Below, piece after piece: positions 10,103-36,961 of a stretch of DNA of 51,848 bases; position 1 is the first letter of the stretch; every line of letters starts with the position of its first letter. Below the pieces are notes generated by a model, which was not told where the DNA came from, searched no databases, and saw only the letters and a list, made by a program, of their open reading frames with translations. Made by a program: the position numbers and the translations under genes. Origin of the DNA: Anaeroplasmataceae bacterium. Its GTDB lineage: Bacteria; Bacillota_I; Bacilli_A; Acholeplasmatales; Anaeroplasmataceae. The stretch lies in NCBI GenBank assembly GCA_045599405.1, contig JAZRVY010000097.1, positions 1 through 51,848 on the forward strand, read 5' to 3'.

Positions 10103-10105
10103 AAG

Positions 10106-18516: not shown

Positions 18517-21072
18517 TTAAAGTGCTGAAGATACCTTTGAAAGAATTGTTCCTGCAAATGATTCAATAGGCGCCTCCTCATTATATGAATGATATAATGC
18601 GACAACATAAATATCAACTAATAATAAAGCTCTATTTGCTTTATTTTCAGGAAGATTTGAAAGGAATACTTTAACAAATTCAACCTCTAATACATTATCT
18701 GAAAGTAGCTTCATGTTTGTCTCATTATACATCACATTATTGGCAGCGCTATTAAATTCAACTTCAGCATTTAAATATATTTGCCATAAATATACAACAT
18801 GTGTGTCTACTTCAATATTAACCTTATTGTATTCAGCTATTACTGCTGCACTAGCTTGCTCATTAGTATCACATCTTGATACAATAGAATCCTTTAATGC
18901 CTCAATTACATCAGCAAAACCAGTAACAAGTGATGCAGCTAGCTCATCAATATCAGTAACATATTTTGCTATGATTTCATCAATTTCATTGACTGATGTT
19001 GCATCATCAATAGCAGCAGCTACAGCCTCTGTTAGATTATAAATTCCTTCATCAATTATATCCCAGTCTTCATTATCTACTTCATCATTTGCATTATATG
19101 CATAAACTGCATACTTATCAATTAAATCTATTTTTTCAAGCTTAATGTTAGATAATGCTGTGAAATCATCCTCTACTGCGTCAATTAATAAGCATGCCTC
19201 ATCATAAGCATCCTTAACAGCATCCTTTGAAGTAGCTGCGTTAATTAATGCCTTTGCATCAGCAAGAGCAAAATTATATTCTGCCTCATTAACTGTATAG
19301 TTAAATGGATCTGCCACCTTATAGGTTTTTATTAAAGTAATATATTTAGCAATCTCCTCTTCAAGCTCAGATGCCTTTGTTGGAATAGAATCTATTTGAA
19401 CCTTTAATTGCTCTAATAAAATATCTACATCAGCAGGACTAGTTTGTCTATTGATTTCTGCTGTTCCATTTTCAATAATTGAGGCAATACCAACTTGATT
19501 ATCAGTTGAATAATCAGCTAAATTTACATAGCTATTTAATTCACTAATTGCAAGAGCCTTACTATCATTTAAAATCTTATCTTGATTTGTAAACTCATCT
19601 AAGAATGTTTCTAATGCATCAGCAATAATTGTATCAATATCAGTCATAGCTGTTGCAGCTTGTAATAAGTCATTTGAGCTATTATACTTAGCCTCAATAT
19701 TTGGCTTAACAGTCTTATAAACTGCTTCACTATTCATATAATATTCCTTAGCTGCTGTTAATGCTTCAAGTGACTTTGATTTATATTGTTCTAGATTAAC
19801 AAGATTTGTACATGCAGCTAAATTATCAAGCTTAAGTGCATTGTCATAAGCCTTAAATTCAACGTGTGTAAAATATGAAGAAGCTAGTGCCTTTTTAGTC
19901 ACTAAATCATTATCATAATAAACACTAATTTCCTTATCAACATGATCAATATAAAGGTAAATGCTTAGTGTCTCATTTACTGCAATATTTTCAAATACCT
20001 CAGTTCCAACCTTTAGCTTTCCATTTGGTGTAACACTAATAGAAAGTACTAAGGAATTATCATTCATTAGATTAATATAATCATAGCTACTTTCTGATAG
20101 CGGATCCTCTTCTATCTCTCTTGTTAATGTAAATGTTATATACATTAATCCTGTATTATATCCATATCCAATATTTGCATAAGCCTTATTGTTGATAATT
20201 AATTGACCATTTACATTAGTTTCCTCTGATGAATAAACACCTTTTTTAATTACAGTTTGCTTAGCGATAGTACCACTGTTGAAATTTTCATCAAGAATAA
20301 CATTAGCCTGATGTCTTATACTTTCATATAAATCTAGCTTTATCCATTTTGCATATAAAACTGTATTAGCTTCAATAGTATCATTCAAATTAGCCTTATG
20401 TACAAAATTCATTTCATAATACCATCCATCAAATGCATAATTATCCTTCTTCATGTCATTTGGAAGATTAGATAGCTTATTACCCTTATACGAATCTATA
20501 GTCGTACCATTATTAGTAACAAATGAGATATTATATATATCAGTCCATTTAGCAATAAGCTTAACATCTGATGTTATCTCATCATTTAATTGTGCCTGTG
20601 TTCCATTTTCATAGAACCAACCTTCAAATATAGCATCAGCATATGTAAGCTCTGGTAGTATTTCAATCTTTGTTGCACCAACAATAGCCTCTGGTGCTGT
20701 ACCATATTTTGTTTCATATGTAATTGTAAGCTTTTGTGTCCACTTAGCTGTTAATGTTGTATTAGCGGTAATCTTATCTCCAATATTGGCCTTTGTATTA
20801 TTTTGATAATACCATCCATCAAAATAATATCCATCATCAGTAATCTCTGGTAGGCTAGTAATTGATGTTACACCTGTAACTTGTATAGGCGCGATACCTT
20901 TGTCTGTAACGTAAGTTACTGAATATGTAGTAACAACCACAGGTGGTCCTGGTGGTGGAGGCGTTGGTGTTGGCTTTATAGTATTTTTCTTTCCACAAGA
21001 TGCTCCAGCAACTAAAATAGTTCCAGCAACCGCTAAAGACACAAATATACTTCCTAGTTTTTTCTTATTCAT
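18517..21072 (-). CDS. surface lipoprotein with three Listeria-Bacteroides (Flg_new/InlB B-repeat type) repeats, a probable lectin-like jelly-roll domain and helical repeats
   Basis: Lipoprotein signal MNKKKLGSIFVSLAVAGTILVAGAS-C, then a PTPTPPPPGPP linker. Three ~65-aa units end in FDGWYY...L.AKW. The middle region (LIINNKAYANIGYGY...VEFKAYDNALKLDNLA) looks like a beta-sandwich. The C-terminal ~400 aa is helical repeat. Confidence 0.8.
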   Translation of the reverse strand: MNKKKLGSIFVSLAVAGTILVAGASCGKKNTIKPTPTPPPPGPPVVVTTYSVTYVTDKGIAPIQVTGVTSITSLPEITDDGYYFDGWYYQNNTKANIGDKITANTTLTAKWTQKLTITYETKYGTAPEAIVGATKIEILPELTYADAIFEGWFYENGTQAQLNDEITSDVKLIAKWTDIYNISFVTNNGTTIDSYKGNKLSNLPNDMKKDNYAFDGWYYEMNFVHKANLNDTIEANTVLYAKWIKLDLYESIRHQANVILDENFNSGTIAKQTVIKKGVYSSEETNVNGQLIINNKAYANIGYGYNTGLMYITFTLTREIEEDPLSESSYDYINLMNDNSLVLSISVTPNGKLKVGTEVFENIAVNETLSIYLYIDHVDKEISVYYDNDLVTKKALASSYFTHVEFKAYDNALKLDNLAACTNLVNLEQYKSKSLEALTAAKEYYMNSEAVYKTVKPNIEAKYNSSNDLLQAATAMTDIDTIIADALETFLDEFTNQDKILNDSKALAISELNSYVNLADYSTDNQVGIASIIENGTAEINRQTSPADVDILLEQLKVQIDSIPTKASELEEEIAKYITLIKTYKVADPFNYTVNEAEYNFALADAKALINAATSKDAVKDAYDEACLLIDAVEDDFTALSNIKLEKIDLIDKYAVYAYNANDEVDNEDWDIIDEGIYNLTEAVAAAIDDATSVNEIDEIIAKYVTDIDELAASLVTGFADVIEALKDSIVSRCDTNEQASAAVIAEYNKVNIEVDTHVVYLWQIYLNAEVEFNSAANNVMYNETNMKLLSDNVLEVEFVKVFLSNLPENKANRALLLVDIYVVALYHSYNEEAPIESFAGTILSKVSSAL

Positions 21073-21132: not shown

Positions 21133-24100
21133 TTATTCTTTTTCTGTAAGAGTTACTAAGAACTCATCAGATGTTGATAATCCCCAATTTGATTCATTCA
21201 CTTCTGCTGAAGGAATAATCTCAATATCTAAGGCTATCTTTTGCATTACGATTGATGGTGGTGGTAAGTATGCACCAGCTTCAACCGCTGTGTTATTATT
21301 TGTATTTTCTTTTCCTTGACTCGTAATAGAGAATGTTCCTGTGTATGCTCCTGGTAAGCTTACTTGGAAGTAACAATATCCACGAGGTAATGCAGGTATA
21401 GAATACTCAAACTTAAACTTCTTTACAGATCCTTCTGTAGTATCATAAATTAAGTTACATGCAATTGTCTTAGTAGTCATTTCATTTGTTTGATCATCGT
21501 AAACATTTACGATAATATTCATATAAATTGATGTTAAATCAACTGCAATTGGAGTACTAACCTCCATCTCAAAGAAGATAGTATTTGTTAAGTCAATTAA
21601 CGCAACATGATAGCACTTGAAGTGTACGCTATCCTCATTATTTAATGCATCCTCTGATAATACAATGTAAGATACATACCAGAAATGATCATCTACTGGA
21701 GTACCAAAATAATCCATGTATAGAGATCTATTTTCAGTTGGGTTACCTGCATAATCAGCAAGATTATATAATGTGTCATTATATGTCACTGACTTATCCT
21801 CATTTACGCTATCTGCAACTAAAGTTGTAGCAGCATTTGTTCCATCATAATCTGTTGTATATACCTTACCCCAAGCAGAGTCAGTATATTCAACAAGAAG
21901 GATAATTTCAGAGCTTCCGCTTACGAATGGAACATATAGTAATACACCATCATGAGTAGATAAAATTTGCTCATCTGACTTAGTTGTTGTCTTACCCTTA
22001 CCATATTCCCTTAGCTTTGTTAAAGTTGTATATTGGTAAATTTCAGAATAGCTATTAATCTTGAATGTTGGAGCATAATTAGATAGGTTAGCATTAGATA
22101 CTGTACCTACGATAAAGTAATCATGAATATAAGATTCAGGATTTGTTCCTTCATATCCATTATAATTAATCTTCTTGCTATCAACATGAATCTTGTTATT
22201 AATATCACTTTCAGTTAAGAAGCTATATAATACTTCATTACCTTCTTTTTCTTCTCCAGGTCTAACTGGTGAAGTTGGATACATAACTGTTGCAAGTGTT
22301 GAAAGCTTAACTGCAGAATCAAGGAATGTAATCTTTCCAAGTAACGCATCAGTAGAATATTGCTTTGTAATAGATACTTCAGGGAATACATACTCTCTAG
22401 TATATTCTCCATCTGTCCATGTAGCTGTATTCTTATAAATATAATTGAATACATATGTTCCTGCAGATGCAGAATCAGATACTACTGCTGTGAATCCTGA
22501 TTGAGCTAATGCTGTAACAATAGCTAAATCCTCTGGTGCAGTAATTCCGTATTCAACGTTTTCACCATCAGTATAGAATCCTGATAATGAATACTTCATT
22601 TGATATTGTGGCTCTACTCCTCTTTCAAATGAATCAGCAAACTTGTTTTGATCCATATCAGAGCTCCATGTCTTAGTAGCAGCCTTATTACCATCCTTAT
22701 ACATATCAGCATAAGTAATGTTTTCTCCACCATATGCTTCTTTTTCTCTTAGCATATGTGTATATGTATTAGTTGTTCCATCCTCTGCTGTTACAACAAT
22801 TGATACAGTATAAGTCATTAAAGATGTTGAGCTAGATAATGCCTTAGTAGCTGAAATTGTAAATGTAGCACAGTCAGAAACTGTTAATACGTTTAGATAG
22901 AAATTAGTACTTGAAGAGTCTGTTAAATCATCATAATCAAACATCTCTCCGAACTTAATTTCAGTTGTAGCTTGATAGCTTGTCCATGTAAGTGGCTTAC
23001 CCTCAAACTCAGACTCAACGATATAAGCTTGGTTAGAAGCTTCCTTAGTAAATTCTACCTTCTTTACAACTCCATAGATATCAACAACAATGTTGTAATC
23101 TCCAGCTGGAAGTGTAGAGAAAATAGTAAATCCTAGGCTAGCAATACCATTTTCATCAACAACACAATCAGTTGTTAATTCATAATCATCAAATACATCT
23201 GTTCCAGCCTTATTTTCAATATAAATATAAGGTGTAACATCAAAGTTTTCTGGTAGCTTTTCTGTATCAACAGAACCTGCTGCAGGCGATGATAATGTTA
23301 GATTAATTGTTCCATTTGTATATGGGATAGAAATTGAAGTTGCATGGCTTGATTCATATAAATCAAAGCTAATATCAATTTCTTCAATAATTAATACATA
23401 GTTTGCAATTACTGTTACATCCTCTGCAAGTACCTTAATAATGTTTGGATTTTCACCAACTGATAAATCAAATGCAGTTGTTAAATCAGTGGAATTATTC
23501 ACATATAATGTAGCATTATTAGCAATAATTGAATTATAAATCTTAACTCCATCAAGATACTCAAATCCCTTAGGAACATAATATGTAATTGTCTTGTTAT
23601 CTAGATCAATATTACTTTCTGATGAGTAAATAATTGAACCATCTGTTGCAATTAAATCTAGAGCGAATACTGTAGTAGAAATTGACTTCTTTAATTGCTT
23701 CATATCTACTAAGAATCCATAGTTAACAGAGCTTGTATCAGATACATCATTCTTTTGAGCATCTGTTGTTTCTCCCTTACCACCACGCCACGATGATGAT
23801 ACAGCAGAAATTAGCTCTGGACCATTAGATGTAATCTTATAATCAACATCCATTGAAGATAATGTTAGGTTGTCTGGTAAGAATGTACCATTCTTGATAC
23901 CTTGGCTTGATGCAAGAGCATAAATACCATATCCAGATGCAGATGTATTGATTTCTAGGTATGCCATTAAAGCATCAAACTTATTGAAATCAAATGTACC
24001 TGAATTAGAAATATATCTATACTTAGAATCAAATGATGTATTTAAAATATTAGCAAACTTAGTTTGAGAAACATTTACTGAAGTATTTAATAATGACTCA

Positions 24101-27100
24101 CTATAAATGTTTGCGTAATCTGTAGCTAAGTATGCTGATAATAATAATGCCTTGAACTTATCAGTTAGCTTAGCTGCACTATTATTCTTTAGATAAGTAA
24201 TTATTGATGAGAAGAACATTACATTTTCATCAATTAGCTCATCTGATAAAATCGTTTGAATCATTTGTGGATCTGTGAATTCATCAAACACGATATTCAT
24301 TGTCTTATTTGAATATCCTGCAAGCTTTAATAATAATGTATTGTCAGCCTTCATTGCATTTTGAAGAGCTGTTACATCAGATGTATTTCCTGTAAGTGGT
24401 ATGAAGTATACTAATAAATCTCTTAAGAAATTATTTGTATTCATCTTGCTAATGCAAGCTTGTGCATACTTACCAGTTACACCATTAATTCCATAGAAAT
24501 CAATCTTTTCAGAATCAATATTAGCAAATGGATTATAATTGTTATCTAATCTATCCTTTGCCTCAGCAAGGGTACTTCCATCATTGAAATAATGAAGTGT
24601 AATTTCCTTAGTATTAGTTACAATTTCATTATATGAATATCCATATGTAACCTTATATCTAACAGCAGTAACAGATACGTCTGTAGTTTGATCTCCTTGA
24701 TACCATGCATTATTGCTACTTAGTATATACATTGGTTTACCATAGTATGAACTAACATCTACATATCCAGATTGAACTGTGCTTCTTCTTGACATAGATT
24801 GATTTTCAAGTAATTTAGTACCCCAAGTCACTTCAGCAACAAGAGAATAATAATATGTACTAGTCTTGTAGTTATAAACTGACACACTTATTTCAGCACC
24901 AGAAATAGTTACTCCACTATGACCATTATTGGCTTCAATATCAGCAGCAAATTCTGCTAATGTTGGAACAGTAAATGAAGTTGTTGTTCTTTGATTATAT
25001 GTATTCTTTGTATATTGTAAAGTATCCGTTCCAGCATGTGGAATAATAGTTTCTGTTGTTTCAACAGCGTATGAGTAAATATCATTAATAGTTAAATTAG
25101 CTGAACCTGAAATAGTAAGCGTAGTAACATTACTTAATGTATATTCATATGATGTTCTTGCGGCAGCTGTAGTTGTACTAGTTACTCTATTTGTTAGACC
25201 TCTAGAGATTGTACCACCTGCATTATATGCAAATGTCATTGTACCAGTGGCATTATTAGATGATGCTGTTACAATAGTAAGCTTAGTTTCCTTACCTGTT
25301 AGCTTTAATGTAATCGATCCATTTGTATCAAATGAAATCGCATATTGATTTGGTGCAGTGAACTTAGTATTTGTAACAATATTAACTCCTGTTGCAGCAG
25401 TTATATTATTAAATAGATTACTAAATGTTGCATCAAAATCTGATTTATTAAATTGCCCATTTGCATCTAGATATGCAGATGGATTTGCAAGTATTTTGTT
25501 TATTGCTGTTCCATAGCCAAAATACTCTTCATATTCTGCTTGAGTCAACTTACTACCATTAATAATGATTTGGTTAACCTCTTGGAATACTGTCTTATTT
25601 GAAGAATATGCTTGAATAAGCTTATTCTTATCATTTGTAATATAAGTGCTCATTAAATATTCATATAATGTAACAACGTTTCCACCTCTATTACATTGTA
25701 AATACTTAATTGCATCTGTGTTATTAACCTTAGTTGTTGTATTGATATTAGTTAGAATAAAGCTATCAATAAATGCTTCATTTACTTGATTATTCTTTGT
25801 TCCTAGCTTCTCTAGTAAGCAGGCAATAACAACACTACGGAATTTATTTACATTAGCAGACTTACAGAAATATTCATTGAATAATCTATTGATAAGTCTT
25901 CTTTCGTCTAATGATTGAACGATATTTCCTGATGATTCATAATAATCACCAATAATACCATCAATAGTTAGCATATCATCAGCATAGTAATCAATATAAG
26001 ATGTAGTATAGACTCTAGTTCCTGATGTCTTGTTAGTCCACCACCAGTTTCCATCCTTATTCTTATATAATCCTGTGTAGCTTGTGCTATGTAGCTTTGT
26101 AGTAGCATATGCATGGTATAAAGTCTTTCCATAATTCCAAATTAAATCTGCCCATCCATGATATGTACAGTTAGTACCATTAGCACCAATGATTAGATTT
26201 GAAGCATCATGCTCTTTAGAGTTATGGTTAGAAGTATGATTTCTAGACGATGTACTATCTCCTACAATTGTAGAGAAATAGTGAATAACTCCGTTAGCAT
26301 CTGTTATATAGAAATATCCATAATAGTTAGAATCAGAATAATTTGTTCTATTAATTGTATATTTTGCTTGAGATGTAACGATGTTTGTAGAATTTTGACG
26401 ACAGTATGGAGAGATAACTCCTCCACGAGCATTAAACTCAACTCCTGCATCATCAACAAGCCATACATCCTTTAAGCTTGTCATCTGACATCCTGTAAAG
26501 TCGGTGATAATATATCCATACTTCTTACCGAAATTCTTACTTGAATCTGTATCTCCTCCACGGAAATATGGAGCCGAACCATTATAGTTTCCTAAAATCT
26601 TTACAGATGTAAATTGGTTATTTGAAGCTCCTGATCCATACTCATAGTAATATGGTGTATAGTCAGTTACATAACCATCAGCCACATACCTATCCATGAA
26701 GTCCTTATCATCAGATACGAATACTGACTTATATCCTCCTTGGTTACCATCTAAGGAAGGCGCTACAGTTGGAGTCGTACCAGCACTTCTCTTATTTCCA
26801 TTTGCATCTGTATATGGTCCGTAGTAATAAGTTTTATCAGTTACAGTAGTTGCATATGTATAAGCAACGTCTCCTGTATACTTACCATCAGTAATAGGCT
26901 CATAATCTGAACGATATGTATTACGAGTATCAATTGCAACATCATAGAATAATCTACCTGTTCCAAGTAATTCCTTTACATACTTTTGGAATGTATCAGT
27001 TGTTCTTAAATCATTATATAGGTTAACACGAGCTGTTGTTGTAGCATTGTCTGTTGAGTCACTAATTGTTGTTGAATTAGTCTTTACTTGATCAACATAG

Positions 27101-30100
27101 CTAGACATATTAGTCATGTTATATCCTTGCTCTGTAAACTCTGGGTAAATTCCTAGCTCATTATCCATTACAGAAACATATGCTTCCATGTTATCTCTAG
27201 ATGTAGATAATATATTCTTATATAGAATAAACTTTCCATCAGCATCAAGATTTGTGTATGATGCATATAGCTTTAATGATACATCATCTGCATTTTCGAT
27301 AGCTTGTCTAGCTTCAGCTGATAACGCATAGCTTAACGATGTATAGAATAAATCATCATCAATGCTTCCAAAGAAATCAACTGCTAGGTTGTATCTTTGA
27401 GCCTTATCTGCATAATTGAAGAACTTAGCTCCATTTGAAATTAAATAATCATTATAGCTACTTACAAGTGAATAAACTGTAGCATCATTAACTTGTGATA
27501 TATAGCTATTTAAAGCTGATTTTACATAAGTTTTAATTTCATTATCAGTTGTTGATGTAAGTACGTCAGCAAGTACCTCACAGTATCCATCTGCTGTAGA
27601 GAAATTAAGTAGCTCAGATCCTGTAATGATTGTAGCGTCAGTATTTAAAATATATTGAGCAATTGCTTGACGTAATTGAGTTGTGATATATACATTTTCA
27701 GCACAGTCATCAGAGAAAATGTACTTAATTGTAGCCTTTAATGTATTAACATCTGATACTGTCTTAAATAATTCAGCAATAAGGGCATCAGCATTATCAG
27801 ATGATAGATTACTTACCCATGCTCCTGTATTTAATGCAGTAGTTACATTAGCACTATATTGGCTAGAATTTAATGTATTATACTTATTAACAAAGATATT
27901 TACATATTCAAGGTTTTGAGCAAAGTCATTTGCTGCTGTTGAATATGCAATTGCACGCCATCCAATCTTATCTAGTAATACATCATTAATCTTTGTGTAT
28001 CCTACGAATTGGAAGTAGTCAGCAAGGAATGAGTCTGTTGCGTAGCTAGCATCTAATCCCTCACCATTAATTGCCTTATAGAATGCGAAATTCTCATTGA
28101 ATACTCCCCAGTAATCAGTCTTATTGTCCTTGCTACTAATTACTTGCTTCTTACCTGTTGTAAGAGGTGAGTATACCATGTTTGTATTTAAATATTTATC
28201 TACCTTATTATATCCATTTTCATATAGTAAATAAGCTGAGTACATCTTAGTTGTATCTACTACTGTTGAGTCTGGTGTTGAAGATTCAGCACCTACGAAT
28301 GGGATATAATCAAGGAAGTTAATTAAATATCTAATCTTAACGTATTGTGCATTGCTAGATCCGTTGAAGTTAACTAACGCGAAGATAGATCCTGTGAATG
28401 TTGTATTTCCATACTCTAGTTCAATCTTAGCCTTAGTAAATGTTCCAAATGTTCCACTTGCAAAGCTTACAATATTTGTATAACGAGGTCTAACTGATGT
28501 AGAATCCTTGAAGTTATTTTCTCCCTTCTCAATTTGCCATACGTTACCGTAGTTAATTGAGTTAGCTAATGATACTGAAGTTGCATTAGATGTAACCTCA
28601 TTCTTAAAGTCCTTAAAGTATACAACTCCGAAAATTCCTGAACCAGTTTCGTTACCATAGATATTTCCATAGTTTGTTGTATTCATGATATTACATAATC
28701 CCACTCCTAGTATACCAGCTGAAATTGAAGTTGGATCGTAGTCAGATGATGTAATGTTATCAATATTGTTATAAGCAATAACATCTCCATAGTTAATAGA
28801 GTATGAAATTAATTGCTTTGAATGTCCGTTATTTGTTGTGTAATCTGCATTAGCCTCTGTCTTGTTATTCTTTGCAGAAATACCTGCAGCTACTACTAGT
28901 CCCTTTTCGTTAGTTCCTGTAGCTCCTGACATATTCGCAGCTAATATAGATCCATTATTTGCACAGTTTAAAATATATGCATATTTACCAACATTTAAAA
29001 CACTTATACCAGCGGCATTAACCTCCATCTTAGTAGTTGTGCTCTTAATGTAGTTAGCTCCAAAGACATTTCCAAGATTGAATGTGTTAGTTATTACCGA
29101 TTTATTTAAATAAGTAATACCAGATACATTTACATTCTTTTCAAAATATCTAGTTGGTGCGTTTTGCATTGTATATCTATTACCGATTGTTTGTCCACCA
29201 TTTGATGATGTTACAGTTGTATTTCCATAAGAAATAGATCCAAATGCAGTTGAGTTAGTAATCTTAATTTGACCATTATTAATAGCCTTATCAAGTACTC
29301 CTACCTTCTTATTGTTATATGAAGATGAGCTTGGATTATATTGATCTAATTCAACATCAGTTAATCCATTTTCAACCTTATAGCAAATTCCGTTAAAGAA
29401 TAAATCACAAGATGCAGCCTTATCACAATCAAAGATAATATCTCCATTGTTGTATAATCCTGAAGCCTTAAATCCTGCTGAAATTTCTTGACAAATTCCA
29501 CTTACAACGATTCCATCAGCACACGTATTAAACTTATTGCTAATATCAAATGTGATACCTCCTTCATTGTAGATTCCTTCAAGATTGTAGTATTGTCCAA
29601 CAATAACTCCTGCAAGCTTATATGCTACATCTAATTGATTAATTTCAGCATTATTAGAAATATATTTAACATCTCTAAAGTTATATACTGATTTTGCATT
29701 AACTGAATGAGAATTATTTGTACCAACATTATTAATTACACCTGCATACTTATGTACATAATGTAAATTTAATGTTTGTGGAGTATTCATAAATACCTTA
29801 GATCCACTTGCTGAATACTTATATCCAAGGTTATAAATTCCTGATAATTCAGATTGGAATCCATTCTTAGAAATGATATTCATAACTCCTGCATATTCTG
29901 CTCTCTTGTTATATGTTGTAATGCTTAATGTTCCTGAGCTTGATACTCCTGAAGCATAGAACATAAACTTAGATAGCTTCTTTAATTGTGAAGCTGGAGT
30001 TTGAGTTTGTGTTGTTTGAACGTCAGCATTAATAGCTCCCGAAACATATGTATAACCATCTGCAATATTATAAATAGTAATATCTCCTTGGTTATGAATA

Positions 30101-32196
30101 TTTTGAATTTCCTTAGTAACTCCAAGTAAACGTCCAATACATCCTGCTGTATAAACACGTCCGATATTATTGTCAGTTGATGAACCAGCAATTATATTTC
30201 CTTTGTTTTCTAGGTTCTTACAGTTATTAGTATAAGCAGCTCCTACCACTCCTCCTACACTTTGGTAGATGTTTGTAGATGATGCGAACTTACCAACTGT
30301 AACTGTTGCTCCGTTTAATAATGTATCAAGGTTACAGAATGTACCATCAGAAAATCCTAGGATTCCTCCTAATGCATTTCCTTCAATAAATCCTGATGTA
30401 TTTGTGTATATAGTTGATTTATCTGTTGAATGTCCTTCACCAGCATCAATAGATCCTGATGTAGTAACTCCATTTAAAGTTCCTTGACCAGATAATACCC
30501 CTACTGCAGTACCTGCAAAGTATCTATCTACTCCAGTTAAATCTACATTAGCATATACATTAACATTTGAAACAGTACCCTTCTCTACGAATCCAGATAC
30601 AACTCCAATAGCCTTAATATTAGATTGATTTGAATTAAAATTTTTAACATCTGCTGTTTGATAGATGTTAAGATTTGAAACTGTTCCTGTTAGCCAAGGG
30701 AATACTCCATAGCAGTCAATACCTGTTGTAGTTACCTTGTTCATAACAGTCGCATCAAAGATAGTAGGATACTTAGAAGCTACACCATTCATATCATAAA
30801 CTGTTGTTCTTCCATCCTTTTCCTTACCCTTGATTGTACATCCGATATATGAATCATACTTGTAAGAAGTTGTTGGGACATTCTTTAAGTAAATATCCTC
30901 CATGATTTGATATGTAATCTTATTTGATGCAAACATCGCAGACATGTTCATAAGTTCATACATATACATGTAATCATATTCATCATAAACATCAAATGTC
31001 TTTGTTGATGCATCATAATCAAGTCCACGTAAAATTGGAGTTTCAATATTTAAGCTTGACTTTAAGTCATCTCCATAAGATGAGCTAATATACCACTTGC
31101 TAGAAGATGCAGCAACTGCATTATTTAGTTTTAACAAAGTATCTTGATACTTTAAGTCAGCTGTAACTGTATATTTTCCATTAAATGGAATTAATCCTGG
31201 CTTATATGCAATTTTTTCTATAGATCCATCATAGCTATATGTTTCAATAGACTTATCATAGAAGAATAGATTTTCTGTTTCTCCAGAGTTAATAGCAACT
31301 ATATTTTGGCTTGATAGATATCCCATGTTAATAACCGAGTGAGATATTACAATATTTACAGCTGTATAAGAATTCTTTAGTTTTCCTGTATTAGTATAAA
31401 CTAAACCAGATACTGCTACTTGTCCAGCAACAACGATTCCGGCTTCATCCTCAATTGGATCAAGGAAATCTCTTACATATGTGTATTCTACTGTACCAAC
31501 ATTGATACCAACTAGGTATGATACCGATTGAAGTCTTGACATAATTGTACTTGCATTAATTACGATAGATGGCGAAATTAATCCAAGATTTTGAATAGCT
31601 CCTGTATTCTTAGAGAACATCGCAAAGTTTTCCATTGATGAATAAGCAAGAGAGTTTTCATTTGTTAACTCAATCATCTTTAATTCATTAATTTCATATC
31701 CATTTCCATCAAACGTTCCTGAGAACGGTTCACCTGTCTTCCATCCTACAGGAATAAATTTATGTGATTCTCCATAAACACTATAATCAATATTTGTAAA
31801 TAGCTTATACTTGTATCCAAGATACTTAGCATTTGAATTACATAAAACAGAGAAAGCATAAAGCTCTTCTGGAGTTGTGATTGTAATTACATTTGAGCTA
31901 GTTACTGTTTTTGATGTAGCAGTAATTGTATCTCCACTAATTGTATAAAGCTCATTCATTGAAATAGCTGTTGTTGATGTTGCTGTGTTTGAAGCCGAAG
32001 GATTAATCTCGTTTTGGCTTCCTACATAATGCGAAACTTGTCCTGAGAATTTTTCTGTTTCTGCTTCAGACGATTGTCCTCCACTTAAAATTCTCTTCCC
32101 ACTCTTTGTACTAAATACTGATACTATAGCTAAACAAAGGATTAAAGATATCACTGATGTTAATACTATAGTTAAAATTTTTCTTTTATTTTTCAT
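21133..32196 (-). CDS. giant (3687 aa) N-terminally anchored surface protein with a GLUG-motif/parallel beta-helix-like N-terminal third
   Basis: Uninterrupted 11,064-nt ORF after the ribosome-binding site AAAGGGGGAGA. N-terminal signal/anchor KILTIVLTSVISLILCLAIVSVFS. The module ITTPEELYAFSVL...IPVGW..EPFSGTFDGNGYEINELKM...IQNLGL..., followed by many G-x-(I/V/L)-G coil repeats (GGILG, GGVVGA, AGCIGR, AGISA, AGILGVG), is typical of GLUG-type adhesins. There is no C-terminal LPxTG or hydrophobic tail. Confidence 0.85.
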   Translation of the reverse strand: MKNKRKILTIVLTSVISLILCLAIVSVFSTKSGKRILSGGQSSEAETEKFSGQVSHYVGSQNEINPSASNTATSTTAISMNELYTISGDTITATSKTVTSSNVITITTPEELYAFSVLCNSNAKYLGYKYKLFTNIDYSVYGESHKFIPVGWKTGEPFSGTFDGNGYEINELKMIELTNENSLAYSSMENFAMFSKNTGAIQNLGLISPSIVINASTIMSRLQSVSYLVGINVGTVEYTYVRDFLDPIEDEAGIVVAGQVAVSGLVYTNTGKLKNSYTAVNIVISHSVINMGYLSSQNIVAINSGETENLFFYDKSIETYSYDGSIEKIAYKPGLIPFNGKYTVTADLKYQDTLLKLNNAVAASSSKWYISSSYGDDLKSSLNIETPILRGLDYDASTKTFDVYDEYDYMYMYELMNMSAMFASNKITYQIMEDIYLKNVPTTSYKYDSYIGCTIKGKEKDGRTTVYDMNGVASKYPTIFDATVMNKVTTTGIDCYGVFPWLTGTVSNLNIYQTADVKNFNSNQSNIKAIGVVSGFVEKGTVSNVNVYANVDLTGVDRYFAGTAVGVLSGQGTLNGVTTSGSIDAGEGHSTDKSTIYTNTSGFIEGNALGGILGFSDGTFCNLDTLLNGATVTVGKFASSTNIYQSVGGVVGAAYTNNCKNLENKGNIIAGSSTDNNIGRVYTAGCIGRLLGVTKEIQNIHNQGDITIYNIADGYTYVSGAINADVQTTQTQTPASQLKKLSKFMFYASGVSSSGTLSITTYNKRAEYAGVMNIISKNGFQSELSGIYNLGYKYSASGSKVFMNTPQTLNLHYVHKYAGVINNVGTNNSHSVNAKSVYNFRDVKYISNNAEINQLDVAYKLAGVIVGQYYNLEGIYNEGGITFDISNKFNTCADGIVVSGICQEISAGFKASGLYNNGDIIFDCDKAASCDLFFNGICYKVENGLTDVELDQYNPSSSSYNNKKVGVLDKAINNGQIKITNSTAFGSISYGNTTVTSSNGGQTIGNRYTMQNAPTRYFEKNVNVSGITYLNKSVITNTFNLGNVFGANYIKSTTTKMEVNAAGISVLNVGKYAYILNCANNGSILAANMSGATGTNEKGLVVAAGISAKNNKTEANADYTTNNGHSKQLISYSINYGDVIAYNNIDNITSSDYDPTSISAGILGVGLCNIMNTTNYGNIYGNETGSGIFGVVYFKDFKNEVTSNATSVSLANSINYGNVWQIEKGENNFKDSTSVRPRYTNIVSFASGTFGTFTKAKIELEYGNTTFTGSIFALVNFNGSSNAQYVKIRYLINFLDYIPFVGAESSTPDSTVVDTTKMYSAYLLYENGYNKVDKYLNTNMVYSPLTTGKKQVISSKDNKTDYWGVFNENFAFYKAINGEGLDASYATDSFLADYFQFVGYTKINDVLLDKIGWRAIAYSTAANDFAQNLEYVNIFVNKYNTLNSSQYSANVTTALNTGAWVSNLSSDNADALIAELFKTVSDVNTLKATIKYIFSDDCAENVYITTQLRQAIAQYILNTDATIITGSELLNFSTADGYCEVLADVLTSTTDNEIKTYVKSALNSYISQVNDATVYSLVSSYNDYLISNGAKFFNYADKAQRYNLAVDFFGSIDDDLFYTSLSYALSAEARQAIENADDVSLKLYASYTNLDADGKFILYKNILSTSRDNMEAYVSVMDNELGIYPEFTEQGYNMTNMSSYVDQVKTNSTTISDSTDNATTTARVNLYNDLRTTDTFQKYVKELLGTGRLFYDVAIDTRNTYRSDYEPITDGKYTGDVAYTYATTVTDKTYYYGPYTDANGNKRSAGTTPTVAPSLDGNQGGYKSVFVSDDKDFMDRYVADGYVTDYTPYYYEYGSGASNNQFTSVKILGNYNGSAPYFRGGDTDSSKNFGKKYGYIITDFTGCQMTSLKDVWLVDDAGVEFNARGGVISPYCRQNSTNIVTSQAKYTINRTNYSDSNYYGYFYITDANGVIHYFSTIVGDSTSSRNHTSNHNSKEHDASNLIIGANGTNCTYHGWADLIWNYGKTLYHAYATTKLHSTSYTGLYKNKDGNWWWTNKTSGTRVYTTSYIDYYADDMLTIDGIIGDYYESSGNIVQSLDERRLINRLFNEYFCKSANVNKFRSVVIACLLEKLGTKNNQVNEAFIDSFILTNINTTTKVNNTDAIKYLQCNRGGNVVTLYEYLMSTYITNDKNKLIQAYSSNKTVFQEVNQIIINGSKLTQAEYEEYFGYGTAINKILANPSAYLDANGQFNKSDFDATFSNLFNNITAATGVNIVTNTKFTAPNQYAISFDTNGSITLKLTGKETKLTIVTASSNNATGTMTFAYNAGGTISRGLTNRVTSTTTAAARTSYEYTLSNVTTLTISGSANLTINDIYSYAVETTETIIPHAGTDTLQYTKNTYNQRTTTSFTVPTLAEFAADIEANNGHSGVTISGAEISVSVYNYKTSTYYYSLVAEVTWGTKLLENQSMSRRSTVQSGYVDVSSYYGKPMYILSSNNAWYQGDQTTDVSVTAVRYKVTYGYSYNEIVTNTKEITLHYFNDGSTLAEAKDRLDNNYNPFANIDSEKIDFYGINGVTGKYAQACISKMNTNNFLRDLLVYFIPLTGNTSDVTALQNAMKADNTLLLKLAGYSNKTMNIVFDEFTDPQMIQTILSDELIDENVMFFSSIITYLKNNSAAKLTDKFKALLLSAYLATDYANIYSESLLNTSVNVSQTKFANILNTSFDSKYRYISNSGTFDFNKFDALMAYLEINTSASGYGIYALASSQGIKNGTFLPDNLTLSSMDVDYKITSNGPELISAVSSSWRGGKGETTDAQKNDVSDTSSVNYGFLVDMKQLKKSISTTVFALDLIATDGSIIYSSESNIDLDNKTITYYVPKGFEYLDGVKIYNSIIANNATLYVNNSTDLTTAFDLSVGENPNIIKVLAEDVTVIANYVLIIEEIDISFDLYESSHATSISIPYTNGTINLTLSSPAAGSVDTEKLPENFDVTPYIYIENKAGTDVFDDYELTTDCVVDENGIASLGFTIFSTLPAGDYNIVVDIYGVVKKVEFTKEASNQAYIVESEFEGKPLTWTSYQATTEIKFGEMFDYDDLTDSSSTNFYLNVLTVSDCATFTISATKALSSSTSLMTYTVSIVVTAEDGTTNTYTHMLREKEAYGGENITYADMYKDGNKAATKTWSSDMDQNKFADSFERGVEPQYQMKYSLSGFYTDGENVEYGITAPEDLAIVTALAQSGFTAVVSDSASAGTYVFNYIYKNTATWTDGEYTREYVFPEVSITKQYSTDALLGKITFLDSAVKLSTLATVMYPTSPVRPGEEKEGNEVLYSFLTESDINNKIHVDSKKINYNGYEGTNPESYIHDYFIVGTVSNANLSNYAPTFKINSYSEIYQYTTLTKLREYGKGKTTTKSDEQILSTHDGVLLYVPFVSGSSEIILLVEYTDSAWGKVYTTDYDGTNAATTLVADSVNEDKSVTYNDTLYNLADYAGNPTENRSLYMDYFGTPVDDHFWYVSYIVLSEDALNNEDSVHFKCYHVALIDLTNTIFFEMEVSTPIAVDLTSIYMNIIVNVYDDQTNEMTTKTIACNLIYDTTEGSVKKFKFEYSIPALPRGYCYFQVSLPGAYTGTFSITSQGKENTNNNTAVEAGAYLPPPSIVMQKIALDIEIIPSAEVNESNWGLSTSDEFLVTLTEKE

Positions 32197-32211: not shown

Positions 32212-32901
32212 CTAGCTATTTAGGAATTCATCTAGATTATCAATTCCCCATACATTCGAAGCACGGTTTGCTTGAACAATATCAATCGAGAATTGAACAT
32301 TTACCATGATTGATTCACGGTAAGAAATATTTGTTTCTGGTTCTGCATAATATGTTGAGTCAACGTCAAATGAGTATGAGTGACTTTCACTTGATGCAGC
32401 AACTGGCAGTTTTAAATATGCACAGTTAGTTGAAGCATCAAACTTCCAATTTGAATCTGTGATTGCGAATGGTGAAGTCGATGGCTTATTTGTATAAGTG
32501 TTTGTAATAACTGAGTTTGTATATACCTTTCTTGAAGTCCAAGTGTCTCTTATTTGAAGTCTTACATATACAAGCGTTGTATTAGTAAATGAGAACTTTA
32601 AACCAATTTGATTTAGGTAATCATATTCAAGCTCATCTGAATATCCATGCTTCTTTGATGCATAGCATGTAATTTTTGTTTCATTTACCTCTGCAGGTGT
32701 TGACTTTCTCTTAGCATTAAAGTCATCATCTACTCCATCAGAGTAATTTAAGAATGATTTGTTATCAATAGTTAGGCTTGCAAGACCAACCTCTTCATCC
32801 TTTGTTTCTCTATGGAAATAGTATGCCGCGCTAATAACAATTGTTGTCATAACTAAAATTGCAAGTGTTAGAGGTAAAATTATAAGCATTTTCTTTTTCA
32901 T
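32212..32901 (-). CDS. small secreted protein, TasA/camelysin-like (SipW-type signal peptide), paralog 3
   Basis: Signal MKKKMLIILPLTLAILVMTTIVISAAYYF. The C-terminal strand SIMVNVQFSIDIVQAN resembles the TasA-family terminal block (..QFSFEATQ..). It lies 4 nt downstream of paralog 2. Confidence 0.6.
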   Translation of the reverse strand: MKKKMLIILPLTLAILVMTTIVISAAYYFHRETKDEEVGLASLTIDNKSFLNYSDGVDDDFNAKRKSTPAEVNETKITCYASKKHGYSDELEYDYLNQIGLKFSFTNTTLVYVRLQIRDTWTSRKVYTNSVITNTYTNKPSTSPFAITDSNWKFDASTNCAYLKLPVAASSESHSYSFDVDSTYYAEPETNISYRESIMVNVQFSIDIVQANRASNVWGIDNLDEFLNS

Positions 32902-32905
32902 AATC

Positions 32906-33514
32906 TTACTCCTCCTTTATTGCAGTCATAGCAAGTACGTAGCTATAAGTTGCGCTTAGATAATCATTGTTTGATAATGCAACCGGATTAATTCCGTATA
33001 CATAAACATAAATGTCTGCTGTATCTTGTGGAGCTAGCGACTCAATAACATACTTGTTTGTTGTAATATCAGTCATCGAATTCTTCTCTAGGTAATCAGT
33101 TACTGTAGTTACTCCATCTCTTACATCATCATTTGCTTTTGTAAAATCCTTAGTTGCAATTGCTGACTCAATATGAGCCGCCTCTAAATCAACGCCCGTC
33201 ATATTTTGGTTTATTTCAATATCGATATTTACTCGACATTCATTTCTTAAAGTCACCTTAAAGATAAATGCCATTCTTCCAAGATATTGTCCTTCCTTTG
33301 GTGCTGTCTTATCAAAGAAGGCAATATTTTCAATATCTAAAGTTTTTACGTTATTGAATCTATCATCAACCTGATACGAGAATACGATACCAGTTGTAGA
33401 CGCATCAATAGGTTGAGTCTTATAACGTCTGATATACCATGCATGAGAAATTGTTGTTCCAATGATACAAGCTATTAGCATTAATCCAATAAATACAAAT
33501 AATTTCTTTTTCAT
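32906..33514 (-). CDS. small secreted protein with a SipW-type signal peptide, paralog 2
   Basis: Signal MKKKLFVFIGLMLIACIIGTTISHAWYI. Start set at 33514, after AAAGGAGG; the ORF-track start is 33532. Similar size and organisation to its two neighbours. Confidence 0.55.
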   Translation of the reverse strand: MKKKLFVFIGLMLIACIIGTTISHAWYIRRYKTQPIDASTTGIVFSYQVDDRFNNVKTLDIENIAFFDKTAPKEGQYLGRMAFIFKVTLRNECRVNIDIEINQNMTGVDLEAAHIESAIATKDFTKANDDVRDGVTTVTDYLEKNSMTDITTNKYVIESLAPQDTADIYVYVYGINPVALSNNDYLSATYSYVLAMTAIKEE

Positions 33515-33553
33515 AGTATTGCCTCCTTTCAAATAGTTTTCTTTAATAATTCA

Positions 33554-34285
33554 CTAAGCTGTGAATGTTACGTTTAGATGGTCAATATGCATATTTTGAT
33601 ATGAATAACATGAGTTATCATCTAAATCTAAATATTCAAGTGCGAAATAACAATATTGAGCTCCACCCGATGTAATTTGTGCACCAGTTGGTCCAAGTAG
33701 TAAGTCATAGATTTCTCCTTTTTCAATTCCAGAGATATCAGCTTCCCAAGCTTCATAATCTACTCCATGACTTCCCATTGGGATTGTTGCCATCGCATGC
33801 TCGATTGCATATTCGTCATTTACGAACACTTCCCAAACATCCTGATCATTCATAGCAATATCGTATAGCACATCACCATTTTCTAATTTAACTTGATTGT
33901 TTTCGTCTATTTCAAATACTGTAACATCGTTATATACAAGAATCTTTTCAACCATATCAATTTCAAGCTCTTCAATCATCGTTGTTGATATGTCTTCAAA
34001 TTCTGCATTTACATTTACACTTGGCTGAGTTGTAGAAAGCTTAAATCTAAAATAAAATACATCTCCTGGCCACATATCCTCAAGCTCAATTTCCTCAAGG
34101 TATTCCCACTCACCCTTAACAGGATTATATGACTCTAATTGGAATGTGCATTCCTCTCCACCAATAGGAACTAGCAATCCACTTGTTGTTCTTTTATTGT
34201 TTGTAAACCAAGCAAAGCTGATTGCGAATGAAACCAAAATCACTAGGACAAACGAAATACTATAAATTATTAACTTTTTCTTCAT
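33554..34285 (-). CDS. small secreted protein, TasA/camelysin-like (SipW-type signal peptide), paralog 1
   Basis: Signal MKKKLIIYSISFVLVILVSFAISFAWFTNN, compared with TasA GGGTWAAFND and camelysin GTFAYFSD. It has an MWPGDVFYFRFKL block like the TasA LKPGD...F.F block. The ORF-track start at 34294 is GTG; the ATG at 34285 follows GAGGTGG. Confidence 0.65.
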   Translation of the reverse strand: MKKKLIIYSISFVLVILVSFAISFAWFTNNKRTTSGLLVPIGGEECTFQLESYNPVKGEWEYLEEIELEDMWPGDVFYFRFKLSTTQPSVNVNAEFEDISTTMIEELEIDMVEKILVYNDVTVFEIDENNQVKLENGDVLYDIAMNDQDVWEVFVNDEYAIEHAMATIPMGSHGVDYEAWEADISGIEKGEIYDLLLGPTGAQITSGGAQYCYFALEYLDLDDNSCYSYQNMHIDHLNVTFTA

Positions 34286-34308
34286 TTCTCCCACCTCTTT
34301 TGTTTATA

Positions 34309-34338
34309 AAAAAAGTTGCAACACAAAGTATTGCAACT
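34309..34338 (-). terminator. intrinsic terminator acting as the riboswitch expression platform
   Basis: Minus strand reads GUUGCAA-uacuuugug-UUGCAAC followed by U7. It sits between the aptamer and the ribosome-binding site of the first operon gene, not after any gene. Confidence 0.7.
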
Positions 34339-34407
34339 GGCTATCCATAATCGGACCCTTTAGCTTTGCGTCACTAGATTACTCTAGCTTTGCTAAATTA
34401 TACTTCT
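34326..34407 (-). promoter_or_regulatory. c-di-GMP-I (GEMM-I) riboswitch aptamer
   Basis: Minus strand reads AGCAAAGC-UAGA-GUAA-UCUA-GUGACGCAAAGCUAAAGGGUCCGAUUAUGGAUAGCCAG. It shows the conserved GCAAA, a GNRA-capped hairpin, the near-invariant GACGCAAAGC, and a second hairpin closed by GCUA/UAGC followed by C. This is the GEMM-I arrangement as I remember it from Vc2 and clostridial examples. Confidence 0.75.
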
Positions 34408-34474
34408 ATATTTTATAACTTATAACTATCTTTTTCAAGCCTTTTATATAGTATATATAAATATACGTACTTAA

Positions 34475-34503
34475 ATTATACCATTTTTTATATAGTATGA
34501 CAA
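34475..34503 (-). promoter_or_regulatory. near-consensus SigA promoter for the riboswitch-led operon (TTGTCA-N17-TGgTATAAT)
   Basis: Minus strand reads TTGTCA (34503..34498), an exact 17-nt spacer, then TGG plus TATAAT (34480..34475). The predicted leader is about 180 nt. Confidence 0.65.
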
Positions 34504-34515
34504 CCTTTTAGGACA

Positions 34516-34549
34516 AATAAAAATACCCCCTCACTTATAAGTGAGAGAG
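34516..34549 (-). terminator. intrinsic terminator after leuS
   Basis: Minus-strand hairpin CUCUCUCACUU / AAGUGAGGGGG (with G-U pairs) followed by UAUUUUUAUUU, about 10 nt below the leuS stop at 34559. Confidence 0.65.
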
Positions 34550-34558
34550 TATCTAGTG

Positions 34559-36961
34559 TTACTTAATTACAATGTTAACTATTTTCTTTGGAACAACAAT
34601 TGTTTTTACAATCTCATGCCCATCTGTAAACTTCTTGACTTGTTCTGAAGAAAGTGCCTTAGCTATCACATTTTCTTGAGTCTCATCTTGTGCAACCTCA
34701 ATCTTATCGCGAAGCTTTCCATTAACTTGAACAACCATGTTAACTGTCGCACTTACAAGCTTAGATTCATCGCATTTAGGCCAAGCTTCATATGCAATTG
34801 TATTGCTATGTCCAAGAATTTGCCATAGTTCCTCACAAATATGTGGAGTAATTGGAGAAAGCAATTTTACTAACCCTTCTACGTACTCAATATTAACAGC
34901 TGGAGCCTTAGTTGCTTCATTCATGAAAATCATCATTTGAGAAATTGCAGTATTAAAGTTTAATGAATCATAGTCACTAGAAACTTTCTTTACAGTTTGG
35001 TTATAAACCATATCTAGTGATGGTGTTTGATCCTTTGTAAATTTATCTGATGATGTTGTTACAAATCTATAAACTTTATCAATAAATCTACGTGCTCCAT
35101 CTAATCCTGTTGTACTCCAAGGCTTAGCTTGCTCTAGTGGTCCCATAAACATTTCATATAGACGTAATGTATCAGCTCCATAGTCTCTTACAACGTCATC
35201 TGGATTAATAACATTTCCACGTGATTTAGACATTTTTTCACCGTTTTCACCTAGAATCATTCCTTGGTGAACAAGCTTCTTAAATGGCTCCTTTACGGGT
35301 ACTATTCCCTTATCATAAAGGTAATTATTCCAGAAACGAGAGTATAATAAATGTCCTACTGCGTGCTCTGGTCCACCTAGATATAAATCTACTGGAAGCC
35401 AGTGCTTAAGTAACTCTTTATTAGCTAATTCATCATTATTTTGTGGGTCAATATAACGTAAGAAATACCAGCTTGAACCCGCAGATCCAGGCATTGTATT
35501 TGTCTCTCTTTTTCCGACCTTTCCCGTCACAGGATTAGTATATTTTTTCCATTCAGTTGCATTTTCAAGTGGTGCAGTACCATTAATTTTTGGCTTATAA
35601 TCATCTAATTCTGGTAGAACTAATGGTAGCTCAGAATCTAGTAAAGCCTCCGAATGATCATCATAATGAACAACTGGAATTGGCTCTCCCCAGTATCTTT
35701 GTCTAGCAAAAATCCACTCTCTTAAACGGTATGAAATCTTCTTAGATCCAATTCCCTTAAACTCAAGGAATTCAATCATTTTGTTGATTGCATCCTCCTT
35801 GTTAAGTCCGTTTAAGAACTCTGAATTAATATGAAGCCCATCATCCTCGTATGCGTGCTCAGAAATATCTCCACCATCAAGAACTTGGATAATTTCTAGG
35901 TTAAATTTCTTTGCAAAATCATAGTCTCTTTGGTCATGTGCAGGAACAGCCATAATAGCCCCTGTACCATATGATGCAAGTACATAATCCGAAATGTAGA
36001 TAGGAATTTCCTTACCATTAACAGGATTAATAGCATATGCTCCTGTAAAGGCTCCCGTCTTTTCTTTGTTTAATTCTGTACGCTCAAGCTCTGACTTTGA
36101 TGCGCACTCTGCCTTATATGCTTCTACTACAGCCTTTTGAGCTGCAGTTGTAATCACATCAACAAGCTTATGCTCAGGTGCCATAACACAATATGTCGCA
36201 CCAAATAATGTGTCACATCTAGTTGTAAACACAGTAAATGATTCGTTAGTATTTTTAATTTTAAATGTTACGTGAGCTCCTATTGATTTACCAATCCAGT
36301 TACGTTGCATTTCCTTAGTAGATTCAGGCCAATCTATTTCATCAAGACCATCAATTAATCTTTCAGCATACTTAGGAATATCCATAACCCATTGCTTCAT
36401 ATTTTTTCTTACAACAGGGAATCCTCCACGCTCAGATTTACCATCAATAATTTCATCATTCGCAAGAACTGTACCTAGCTCCTCACACCAGTTAACTGGC
36501 ATATCAATTTGCTTAGCTAATCCATCATTGAACAGTTGCTTAAAGATCCATTGTGTCCACTTATAGAATGATGGATCACATGTCGAAACCTCTTTAGACC
36601 AGTCAAAAGAGAATCCTAGCATCTTTAATTGTCTAGTGAATGTTTCAATGTTCTTCTTTGTAAATCCTTCAGGATGATTTCCAGTCTTAATTGCAAATTG
36701 TTCTGCAGGTAAACCAAAGGAATCATATCCCATTGGGTGAAGAACATTATATCCTTCCATTCTCTTCTTTCTACAAACTATATCTGTTGCAGTATATCCC
36801 TCTGGATGTCCAACATGTAAACCTTGTCCAGATGGATATGGGAACATATCTAACGCATAAAATTTAGGCTTAGAGAAATCCCATACATCAGTCTTAAATG
36901 TATCATTCTCTTCCCAATATTTTTGCCACTTTTTTTCTATTTCTGTATGATTGAATTCCAT
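34559..36961 (-). CDS. leuS: leucine--tRNA ligase
   Basis: [16 protein letters not shown] (HIGH-type motif), the CP1 editing domain, KMSKSRGN (KMSKS) and an 800-aa length are typical of bacterial LeuRS. Confidence 0.96.

Follow-up and report, generated by a model that had tools for sequence, protein, structure and literature searches.

The TasA fibre of Bacillus subtilis, encoded in the tapA-sipW-tasA operon (structures 8AUR and 5OF1), polymerises by strand donation: residues 28–38 of TasA (with F29, I32 and F39), directly after the SipW cut, form the donor strand that joins the subunits, and TapA shares this strand (PMC9674648). Here we describe a minus-strand cassette of three small genes, P1, P2 and P3, and a fourth gene for a giant protein, located in a 51,848-nucleotide stretch of contig JAZRVY010000097.1 from an Anaeroplasmataceae bacterium (the whole stretch is referred to as the window). 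The cassette lies behind a cyclic di-GMP (c-di-GMP) riboswitch, its gene order is conserved across the lineage, and the three small proteins share a signal-peptide junction that resembles that of TasA. We are highly confident that it represents a real, c-di-GMP-regulated, extracytoplasmic functional unit, and the operon probably encodes an adhesion or fibre system that has gone unannotated. The four genes are listed below; the arrow marks the junction here and throughout.

33554–34285, minus strand: P1, 243 amino acids from the ATG; junction SFA↓WF after MKKK and a 21-residue hydrophobic segment

32906–33514, minus strand: P2, 202 amino acids; junction SHA↓WY; GGAGG ribosome-binding site 5' of the ATG at 33514

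32212–32901, minus strand: P3, 229 amino acids; junction SAA↓YY (family consensus VFA↓AF)

21133–32196, minus strand: giant gene, 3,687 amino acids; N-terminal membrane anchor; no AW[YF]-type junction

Comparison with described systems

The cassette shares with tapA-sipW-tasA signal peptides of the same length, which end in small-x-A and are followed by alanine or an aromatic residue and then by an aromatic one. An N-L/I-x-PGD block of P1 lies in register with that of TasA, and the TasA fibre is the best, though weak, Protein Data Bank (PDB) match of the P1 model. Just as the accessory protein TapA shares its N-terminal strand with TasA, several different proteins share one N-terminal module here. 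However, P1–P3 match neither M73 nor TIGR04088, and their mature domains have no detectable sequence homology to TasA; the operon lacks sipW and encodes three dissimilar small subunits and a 3,687-residue protein in a wall-less host. Whereas tapA-sipW-tasA is under the control of SinR, the cassette is under the control of the riboswitch.

The signal peptides encoded by the Clostridium perfringens operon sipW-bsaA-bsaB-bsaC are thought to be cut by SipW, and BsaA forms polymers by donor-strand exchange that remain attached to the membrane (PMC11580942). As in our cassette, a single operon encodes several small TasA-like proteins and, after them, a larger one, but sipW is the first gene there and is absent here, and BsaC is a 70-kDa vWA protein rather than a giant orphan. 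The N-E-K isopeptide triad of BsaA was sought in the P1 family, where N30 is near-invariant and no conserved K or E partners were found. The CalY/TasA proteins (camelysin) of the Bacillus cereus group carry an aromatic pair after the alanine (GGGT[YF]A↓YFSD), as do P1 and P2 (A↓W-Y/F), and the PGD block is common to both. In contrast to P1–P3, CalY proteins match the M73/TasA models, and their GGG helix breaker is absent from P1–P3. Far outside Bacillus, the archaeal AbpA/AbpX pili are described as TasA-type donor-strand fibres processed by a peptidase of endoplasmic reticulum (ER)/archaeal type (PMC9245690, bioRxiv 10.64898/2026.01.04.697558). They differ from the cassette in being archaeal homopolymers.

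Adhesins under riboswitch control (B. thuringiensis Bc2-cap; C. difficile CD2831 and pilA1) resemble the cassette in that a GEMM-I element occupies the 5' leader of a gene for a very large surface or adhesion protein and, for Bc2-cap, in an ON logic that operates through competition between terminator and aptamer (PMC4933901, PMC6366702, PMC6200980). Their targets are sortase-anchored wall proteins or type IV pili, whereas here they are small orphans and a membrane-anchored giant. Five features thus distinguish the cassette from known systems: the lack of an operon-encoded peptidase, three dissimilar small subunits, a giant orphan, riboswitch control and a wall-less host.

The c-di-GMP riboswitch

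The strongest functional clue for the operon is a c-di-GMP-I riboswitch in its leader, which comprises the following elements.

34329–34404, minus strand: c-di-GMP-I (GEMM-I) riboswitch aptamer, RF01051, in the 5' leader of P1

34304–34338, minus strand: intrinsic-terminator-like hairpin of 11 base pairs with a U7 tract, its 5' arm (AGUU...) within the 3' helix strand of the aptamer; the expression platform

34475–34503, minus strand: sigma-70-like promoter, TTGTCA-17-TATAAT with an upstream TG; the best promoter-like match of a 16-kb scan (11/12), by consensus match only

34521–34554: terminator hairpin of the leucyl-tRNA synthetase (LeuRS) gene, preceding the promoter-like site

The RF01051 match has a score of 51.5 bits (gathering score, 35), covers the full model (positions 1–87) with E values of 8e-10 to 3e-7, and lies 43 nucleotides before the ATG of P1. 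Of the 13 other loci for which upstream sequence is available, 12 have a riboswitch of this family (47–64 bits) directly before their first P1-like gene; locus L011 is the exception. AGCCAGUUGC, the conserved sequence of the aptamer's 3' strand, also serves as the 5' arm of the hairpin with its U-tract; this holds for the window and for at least 10 other loci. Since the two structures share this strand, the aptamer and terminator folds are mutually exclusive, and we therefore infer that the riboswitch is an ON switch. Experiments on the Bc2 riboswitch of B. thuringiensis, which precedes the gene for collagen adhesion, have shown the same ON logic (PMC4933901). Because c-di-GMP riboswitches of Firmicutes typically control adhesins, pili and flagella (PMC6366702, PMC6200980), we assign the operon to the biology of surface adhesion or biofilms. 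This analogy is independent of any argument involving TasA, and it points to a role of the cassette in surface adhesion or biofilm formation.

The riboswitch, the overlapping terminator and the promoter-like site (34304–34503) are situated just outside the coordinates covered by the first-pass annotation, which had not noticed them. A second c-di-GMP-I riboswitch (58.1 bits) is present in locus L009 at 6978–7055 on the minus strand, where it faces another very large open reading frame (ORF; 567–6830, minus strand, approximately 2,090 codons). It is divergent from the riboswitch of the cassette itself, so that two c-di-GMP-controlled giant genes stand back to back.

Organisation and conservation of the cassette

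P1, P2 and P3 are co-oriented and are followed on the minus strand by two large ORFs, the giant gene and one of 851 codons. The intergenic gaps from P1 through the 851-codon ORF are 21, 4, 15 and 60 nucleotides, in that order, and a separate AGGAGG-type ribosome-binding site precedes each gene, including the giant gene, which starts 15 nucleotides past the P3 stop. The isoelectric points of the mature proteins are 4.05 (P1), 4.6 (P2) and 4.8 (P3), and serine, threonine and asparagine make up 29% of P3; the very acidic and Thr/Asn-rich compositions described in the first-pass annotation are borne out by these values.

A word-indexed protein search with P1 as a single sequence returned only P1 itself, and a concatenated P1+P2+P3 alignment gave no match in the same type of search. 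The word-indexed collection does hold four relatives of P3, and their contigs keep the order P1-P2-P3-giant gene. Scanning species-representative genomes with the P3 alignment yielded 13 loci, which are labelled Anaeroplasma, Anaeroplasmataceae or Acholeplasmatales or are loosely named metagenome-assembled genomes (MAGs), and which include the cultured Anaeroplasma bactoclasticum ATCC 27112. Complete cassettes are found in 14 loci (the window, L001–L012 and L014). Gene order is kept in all 14, with a fourth gene encoding 3,200–3,700 amino acids, and the spacing, ribosome-binding sites and motifs have likewise persisted at identities of only 20–45%. With P1 as the query, an exhaustive HMMER search identified 52 family representatives; a set of 45 sequences was used for the P1 family profile, the family-model scans and AlphaFold2.

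Among the three small proteins, P3 shows the highest conservation, with G-x-I-x-I-x-SK after the junction and an invariant C-terminal DIVQANRA block. Conserved blocks of P2 beyond its junction are T-x-x-IDA-x-T-x-GI-x-F-x-Y and FFDID, and the very acidic mature part of P1 contains an N-x-x-PGD-x-x-YFR block. The internal blocks highlighted in the first-pass annotation, MWPGDVFYFRFKL in P1, VQFSIDIVQAN in P3 and LAIVSVFSTKSGK in the giant protein, are all present. Database searches offer little help in assigning these proteins. P2 has no family or PDB match, the giant protein matches nothing in Pfam, NCBIfam or the PDB sequences, and PDB sequence and profile searches with all four proteins returned nothing relevant. 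In public databases (NCBI, UniRef), the four proteins have no annotation beyond 'hypothetical protein', even in the cultured type strain A. bactoclasticum ATCC 27112.

In L004, an Anaeroplasma MAG (3506–8151), the riboswitch is followed by an extra P1-like gene (3653–4408) and by a gene for a 1,239-residue protein with Flg_new (Listeria-Bacteroides) repeats; the usual P1-P2-P3-giant cassette comes next, with no second riboswitch. The N-terminus of the 1,239-residue protein carries a ...TSYA↓WYTN junction, and the gene for this protein sits inside the riboswitch-controlled operon. A further locus, L015 (8217–20355), lies on the complete chromosome of a 'Clostridium sp.' MAG. The riboswitch is present, no more than a fragment of P3 can be matched, and many short ORFs stand in place of an intact giant gene; this copy looks like a decaying cassette.

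Signal-peptide junctions of P1, P2 and P3

The first-pass annotation had described an S-x-A-aromatic-aromatic junction in three tandem paralogs. The N-termini of the three ORFs are exactly as it quoted them, the distance from the start methionine is the same, and the junction is conserved in orthologues from the 13 other loci and in the 45-member P1 family. The pattern common to P1–P3 is [small/aliphatic]-x-[A/G]↓[W/A/Y]-[Y/F], approximately 25 residues from the methionine. It takes the form x-x-A↓W-[YF]-x-x-N in P1 (loci and P1 family), [STI]-[YFH]-[AG]↓W-[YF] in P2 (loci) and [VI]-[FYS]-[AG]↓A-[FY] in P3 (loci). The junction always follows MKKK and approximately 21 hydrophobic residues, with the A/G at position 24–29, and it fits the −3/−1 pattern of type I signal-peptidase sites.

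The signal region is also among the best conserved parts of P1. In the P1 family, the first 30 residues carry 2.3–2.6 bits per column, whereas most mature-domain blocks of 10 residues carry 0.9–2.0; comparable values are reached only by the PGD block (2.61) and by the C-terminal YFALE (2.73) and YxYQ (2.30) blocks. The stretch after the junction is conserved as well (1.87 bits per column), and the hydrophobic region (h-region) has conserved polar positions, S-I-x-S-L-x-x-T-x-x-L-L-I.

BLASTP similarity between P1 and P2 is confined to the first 33 residues. When signal peptides were removed, profile–profile comparison gave an E value of 0.012 over 77 columns for P1 and P2 and nothing for P1 and P3 or for P2 and P3. 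This lends weak support to the earlier designation as paralogs for the pair P1/P2 and none for the pairs with P3; the three proteins are thus not demonstrably paralogous by sequence. Nor does the suggested extension of the junction to the giant protein hold. The anchor of the giant protein had been said to end similarly, but the anchor of its orthologues is a plain hydrophobic segment at the N-terminus in which no [AG]-aromatic-aromatic motif is conserved, and comparison of these orthologues rules out that it shares the junction.

A type IV pilin or pseudopilin was considered in view of the helix-plus-β-domain shape and was rejected: there is no leader and no G↓F/M-x-x-x-E motif, and the hydrophobic segment directly follows MKKK.

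Similarity to TasA and CalY

For comparison, six annotated genes from Bacillus plasmids were combined into a TasA/CalY profile; the TasA sequence used is identical to PDB entry 8AUR over residues 28–261. Mature TasA in 8AUR begins with A28 (AFND...), straight after ...GGGTWA, and the CalY-type junction in this set is GGGT[YF]A-YFSD. The SipW-cognate signals of the set are as conserved as those of P1–P3 and have the same length. With signal peptides included, hhalign aligned the P1 family with the TasA/CalY profile at a probability of 53% (E 1.3e-4, 74 columns), with the N-[IL]-x-PGD block as well as the junction in register. The likeness of the junctions noted in the first-pass annotation is supported. 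Moreover, the N-terminal 47 residues of P3 align without gaps to residues 3–49 of TasA, including G-x-[IL]-x-[IL]-x-[SA]-K (pairwise E 0.016). The two families specified beforehand, M73 and TIGR04088, surface among a few dozen noise hits of the 45 P1 relatives with one sub-threshold hit each (E 0.054 and 0.041, respectively), and neither is a match.

Structure models

The AlphaFold2 model of P1, calculated from the 45 sequences, has a predicted local distance difference test score (pLDDT) of 90.4 and a predicted template modelling score (pTM) of 0.78. It consists of a helix (residues 2–30), a disordered stretch (31–42; pLDDT 43) and a β-sandwich. When the model was compared with 350,542 PDB chains using Foldseek, the top match was the cryo-electron microscopy structure of the TasA fibre (8AUR_A; probability 0.92). 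The next matches are the donor-strand pilins CfaB and CS17, and carbohydrate-binding modules and Ig-like adhesin domains are also on the list. The P3 model could be based on five sequences only and has a pLDDT of 63.6.

Three features fit the donor-strand principle: the conserved aromatic pair after the conserved A/G, the conserved stretch of 12–18 residues beyond it that is unstructured in the AlphaFold2 model, and the presence of one N-terminal module on dissimilar proteins, including the 1,239-residue protein of L004.

Proposed function and alternatives

Our preferred reading, in which our confidence is evenly balanced, is that of a c-di-GMP-ON operon for three exported β-sandwich proteins, which carry a TasA/CalY-type signal and donor-strand module, are cleaved (probably by a SipW-type peptidase) and form a surface fibre or adhesion complex with the giant protein. 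High c-di-GMP would stabilise the aptamer, block the terminator and turn the operon on. P1–P3 would leave the cytoplasm through the Sec pathway, and a type I signal peptidase, probably of the SipW-like (ER/archaeal) kind found in the genus, would cleave them behind the A/G. The new aromatic N-terminus and the next 12–18 conserved residues might then act as the donor strand that completes the β-sandwich of a neighbour, as in TasA, BsaA and AbpA. A short heteromeric fibre or stalk would result and would work together with the giant protein, which would keep its membrane anchor and tether the structure in a wall-less cell.

Several results weigh against this reading. Neither Pfam PF12389 (Peptidase_M73) nor NCBIfam TIGR04088 (SipW-dependent-type signal peptide) gave a hit at E ≤ 10 with P1, P2, P3 or the three family consensus sequences; these were the searches that the first-pass annotation had proposed as a check on its suggestion, and they speak against it. 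Profile similarity to TasA/CalY resides mostly in the signal peptide. When only the mature part of P1 was aligned, just the PGD block was left (E 0.015 over 25 columns, compared with 0.095 for a reversed control), and mature P2 and P3 gave E values above 0.2. The proposed likeness of the P1 block to the LKPGD block of TasA stands as far as its register is concerned, in the alignment that includes the signal peptide, and is not significant in the mature part alone. The structural match to 8AUR is weak (E 6.8e-3, TM scores 0.32/0.33, root-mean-square deviation 9.4 Å), monomeric TasA (5OF1) is outside the top 50 Foldseek matches of the P1 model, and Foldseek with the low-confidence P3 model returned noise and nothing meaningful. 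The hydrophobic segment before the junction has no Gly or Pro helix breaker.

These comparisons do not show that P1–P3 belong to the TasA family. The family is extremely divergent, with 632 of 2,172 members in the M73 InterPro family, and BsaA is too divergent to be detected by BLAST (PMC11580942). Because of this divergence, the failure of the family models lowers the probability that P1–P3 are M73 members more than the probability that they work like TasA.

The peptidase is a further weak point of the fibre model. No signal peptidase gene is present in the 51.8-kb window, and 13 of the 14 cassette loci (including the window) have no SipW-type gene within the fetched flanks. In A. bactoclasticum (L008), an archaeal/ER-type signal peptidase I is encoded at 1589–2329; the gene precedes the cassette by 5.3 kb and is oriented like it. 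With TIGR02228 the enzyme reaches 80 bits (cutoff 51.85), and its best model is SipW at 82.8 bits, below the equivalog cutoff. The idea that one dedicated SipW-type peptidase processes all four products finds a candidate near the cassette in A. bactoclasticum and none in the window or the other loci, and it fails for the giant protein, which lacks the motif. A metagenome scan with the A. bactoclasticum peptidase for linkage to AW[YF] genes retrieved only an unrelated high-GC, archaeal-looking contig. Between the L008 peptidase and the cassette (L008 1589–7050) lie an AAA_21 and RloB pair and an AAA_14 ATPase; the block looks like an inserted defence or mobile element and contains a borderline group II intron fragment (RF02001, 32.2 versus 32 bits).

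As a possible but rather doubtful alternative, P1–P3 could be uncleaved signal anchors, that is, membrane-tethered accessory subunits of the giant surface protein (e.g., a platform for its assembly, secretion or docking), with A-W-[YF] as an interfacial aromatic belt or helix-packing motif. The hydrophobic segment might be such an anchor because its run of approximately 21 residues has no breaker and AlphaFold2 predicts a single confident helix through to residue 30 of P1; a long helix of this kind is equally compatible with an uncleaved anchor. The conserved polar positions of the P1 h-region suggest specific helix contacts, wall-less cells need membrane anchoring, and both the lack of a linked peptidase in the window and the unmatched SipW-signal models agree with this alternative. 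Nevertheless, the A/G that almost always precedes the aromatic pair, with a small or aliphatic residue at −3 and a bulky one at −2, follows the signal-peptidase pattern and meets no requirement of an anchor. TasA/CalY signals of the same length and equal conservation are cleaved, AlphaFold2 also draws cleavable signal peptides as helices, and a simple anchor would have no obvious use for the conserved but disordered stretch behind the junction.

We consider it unlikely that P1–P3 carry ordinary Sec signals for the general signal peptidase and are monomeric secreted or surface β-sandwich proteins (e.g., binding modules acting with a giant adhesin), in which case the TasA-like junction would be convergent. 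The absence of significant sequence similarity between their mature domains and TasA/CalY, the weak structural matches, among which carbohydrate-binding modules and Ig-like adhesin domains are found, and the lack of a linked dedicated peptidase in most loci would all agree with this explanation. Ordinary signal peptides, however, do not rank with the best conserved parts of their family, whereas these do. The junction recurs on three unrelated-looking proteins and on the 1,239-residue Flg_new protein of L004, which argues for a shared recognition or assembly function, and the top match among all PDB chains searched was the TasA fibre that had been specified beforehand. A chance resemblance or a set of mis-called ORFs without function, for which only the absence of database annotation speaks, can be dismissed in view of the conservation of order, spacing, ribosome-binding sites and motifs at such low identity, the confident fold prediction for P1 and the conserved riboswitch.

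Returning to the fibre model, we tentatively raise a further possibility, which we hold to be far from certain and indeed somewhat improbable: the cassette may encode a new type of c-di-GMP-induced surface appendage, a heteromeric fibre or stalk in which three extremely diverged TasA-like subunits, cut by an ER-type peptidase and assembled through N-terminal strand donation, are coupled to a membrane-anchored protein of approximately 3,700 residues, so that the TasA principle would operate without peptidoglycan. Anaeroplasma is a common commensal of gut and rumen. Our literature searches found no report linking TasA-like proteins or c-di-GMP riboswitches to Anaeroplasma or its relatives, and such an organelle would occur in a lineage without described c-di-GMP control or fibres. 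If the model is correct, donor-strand (TasA-type) matrix or fibre assembly would extend to wall-less gut bacteria, and the cassette would illustrate a way of anchoring such fibres in the absence of a wall. The riboswitch, the three small subunits and the adhesin-like giant would also provide a handle on the surface attachment of Anaeroplasma. Should the link to TasA fail, a conserved c-di-GMP-ON operon with a giant orphan is still a clear and testable unit of surface biology in this lineage.

Neighbouring genes

On either side, the operon is flanked by housekeeping genes (shikimate pathway, uronate catabolism, aminoacyl-tRNA synthetase), and the GC content is approximately 33%. The immediate neighbours of the cassette are as follows.

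34559–36961: LeuRS gene, upstream of P1-P2-P3 and the two large ORFs

18517–21072, minus strand: gene for an 851-amino-acid lipoprotein; lipobox LVAGASC; Listeria-Bacteroides (Flg_new) repeats

The lipoprotein has a Pro/Thr-rich linker after the lipobox, and its gene follows the giant gene after 60 nucleotides. This gene may belong to the operon as a fifth member, co-transcribed with the cassette.

Elsewhere in the window, two adjacent minus-strand genes (44884–47718 and 47731–50802) encode large predicted lipoproteins of 944 and 1,023 amino acids, with lipoboxes LSLASCG and GLTSCK and no Pfam match. A 495-amino-acid protein (10291–11778, minus strand) has an N-terminal hydrophobic segment and three DUF1508 repeats, and a cluster of four tRNA genes (9868–10181) is located just downstream of it.

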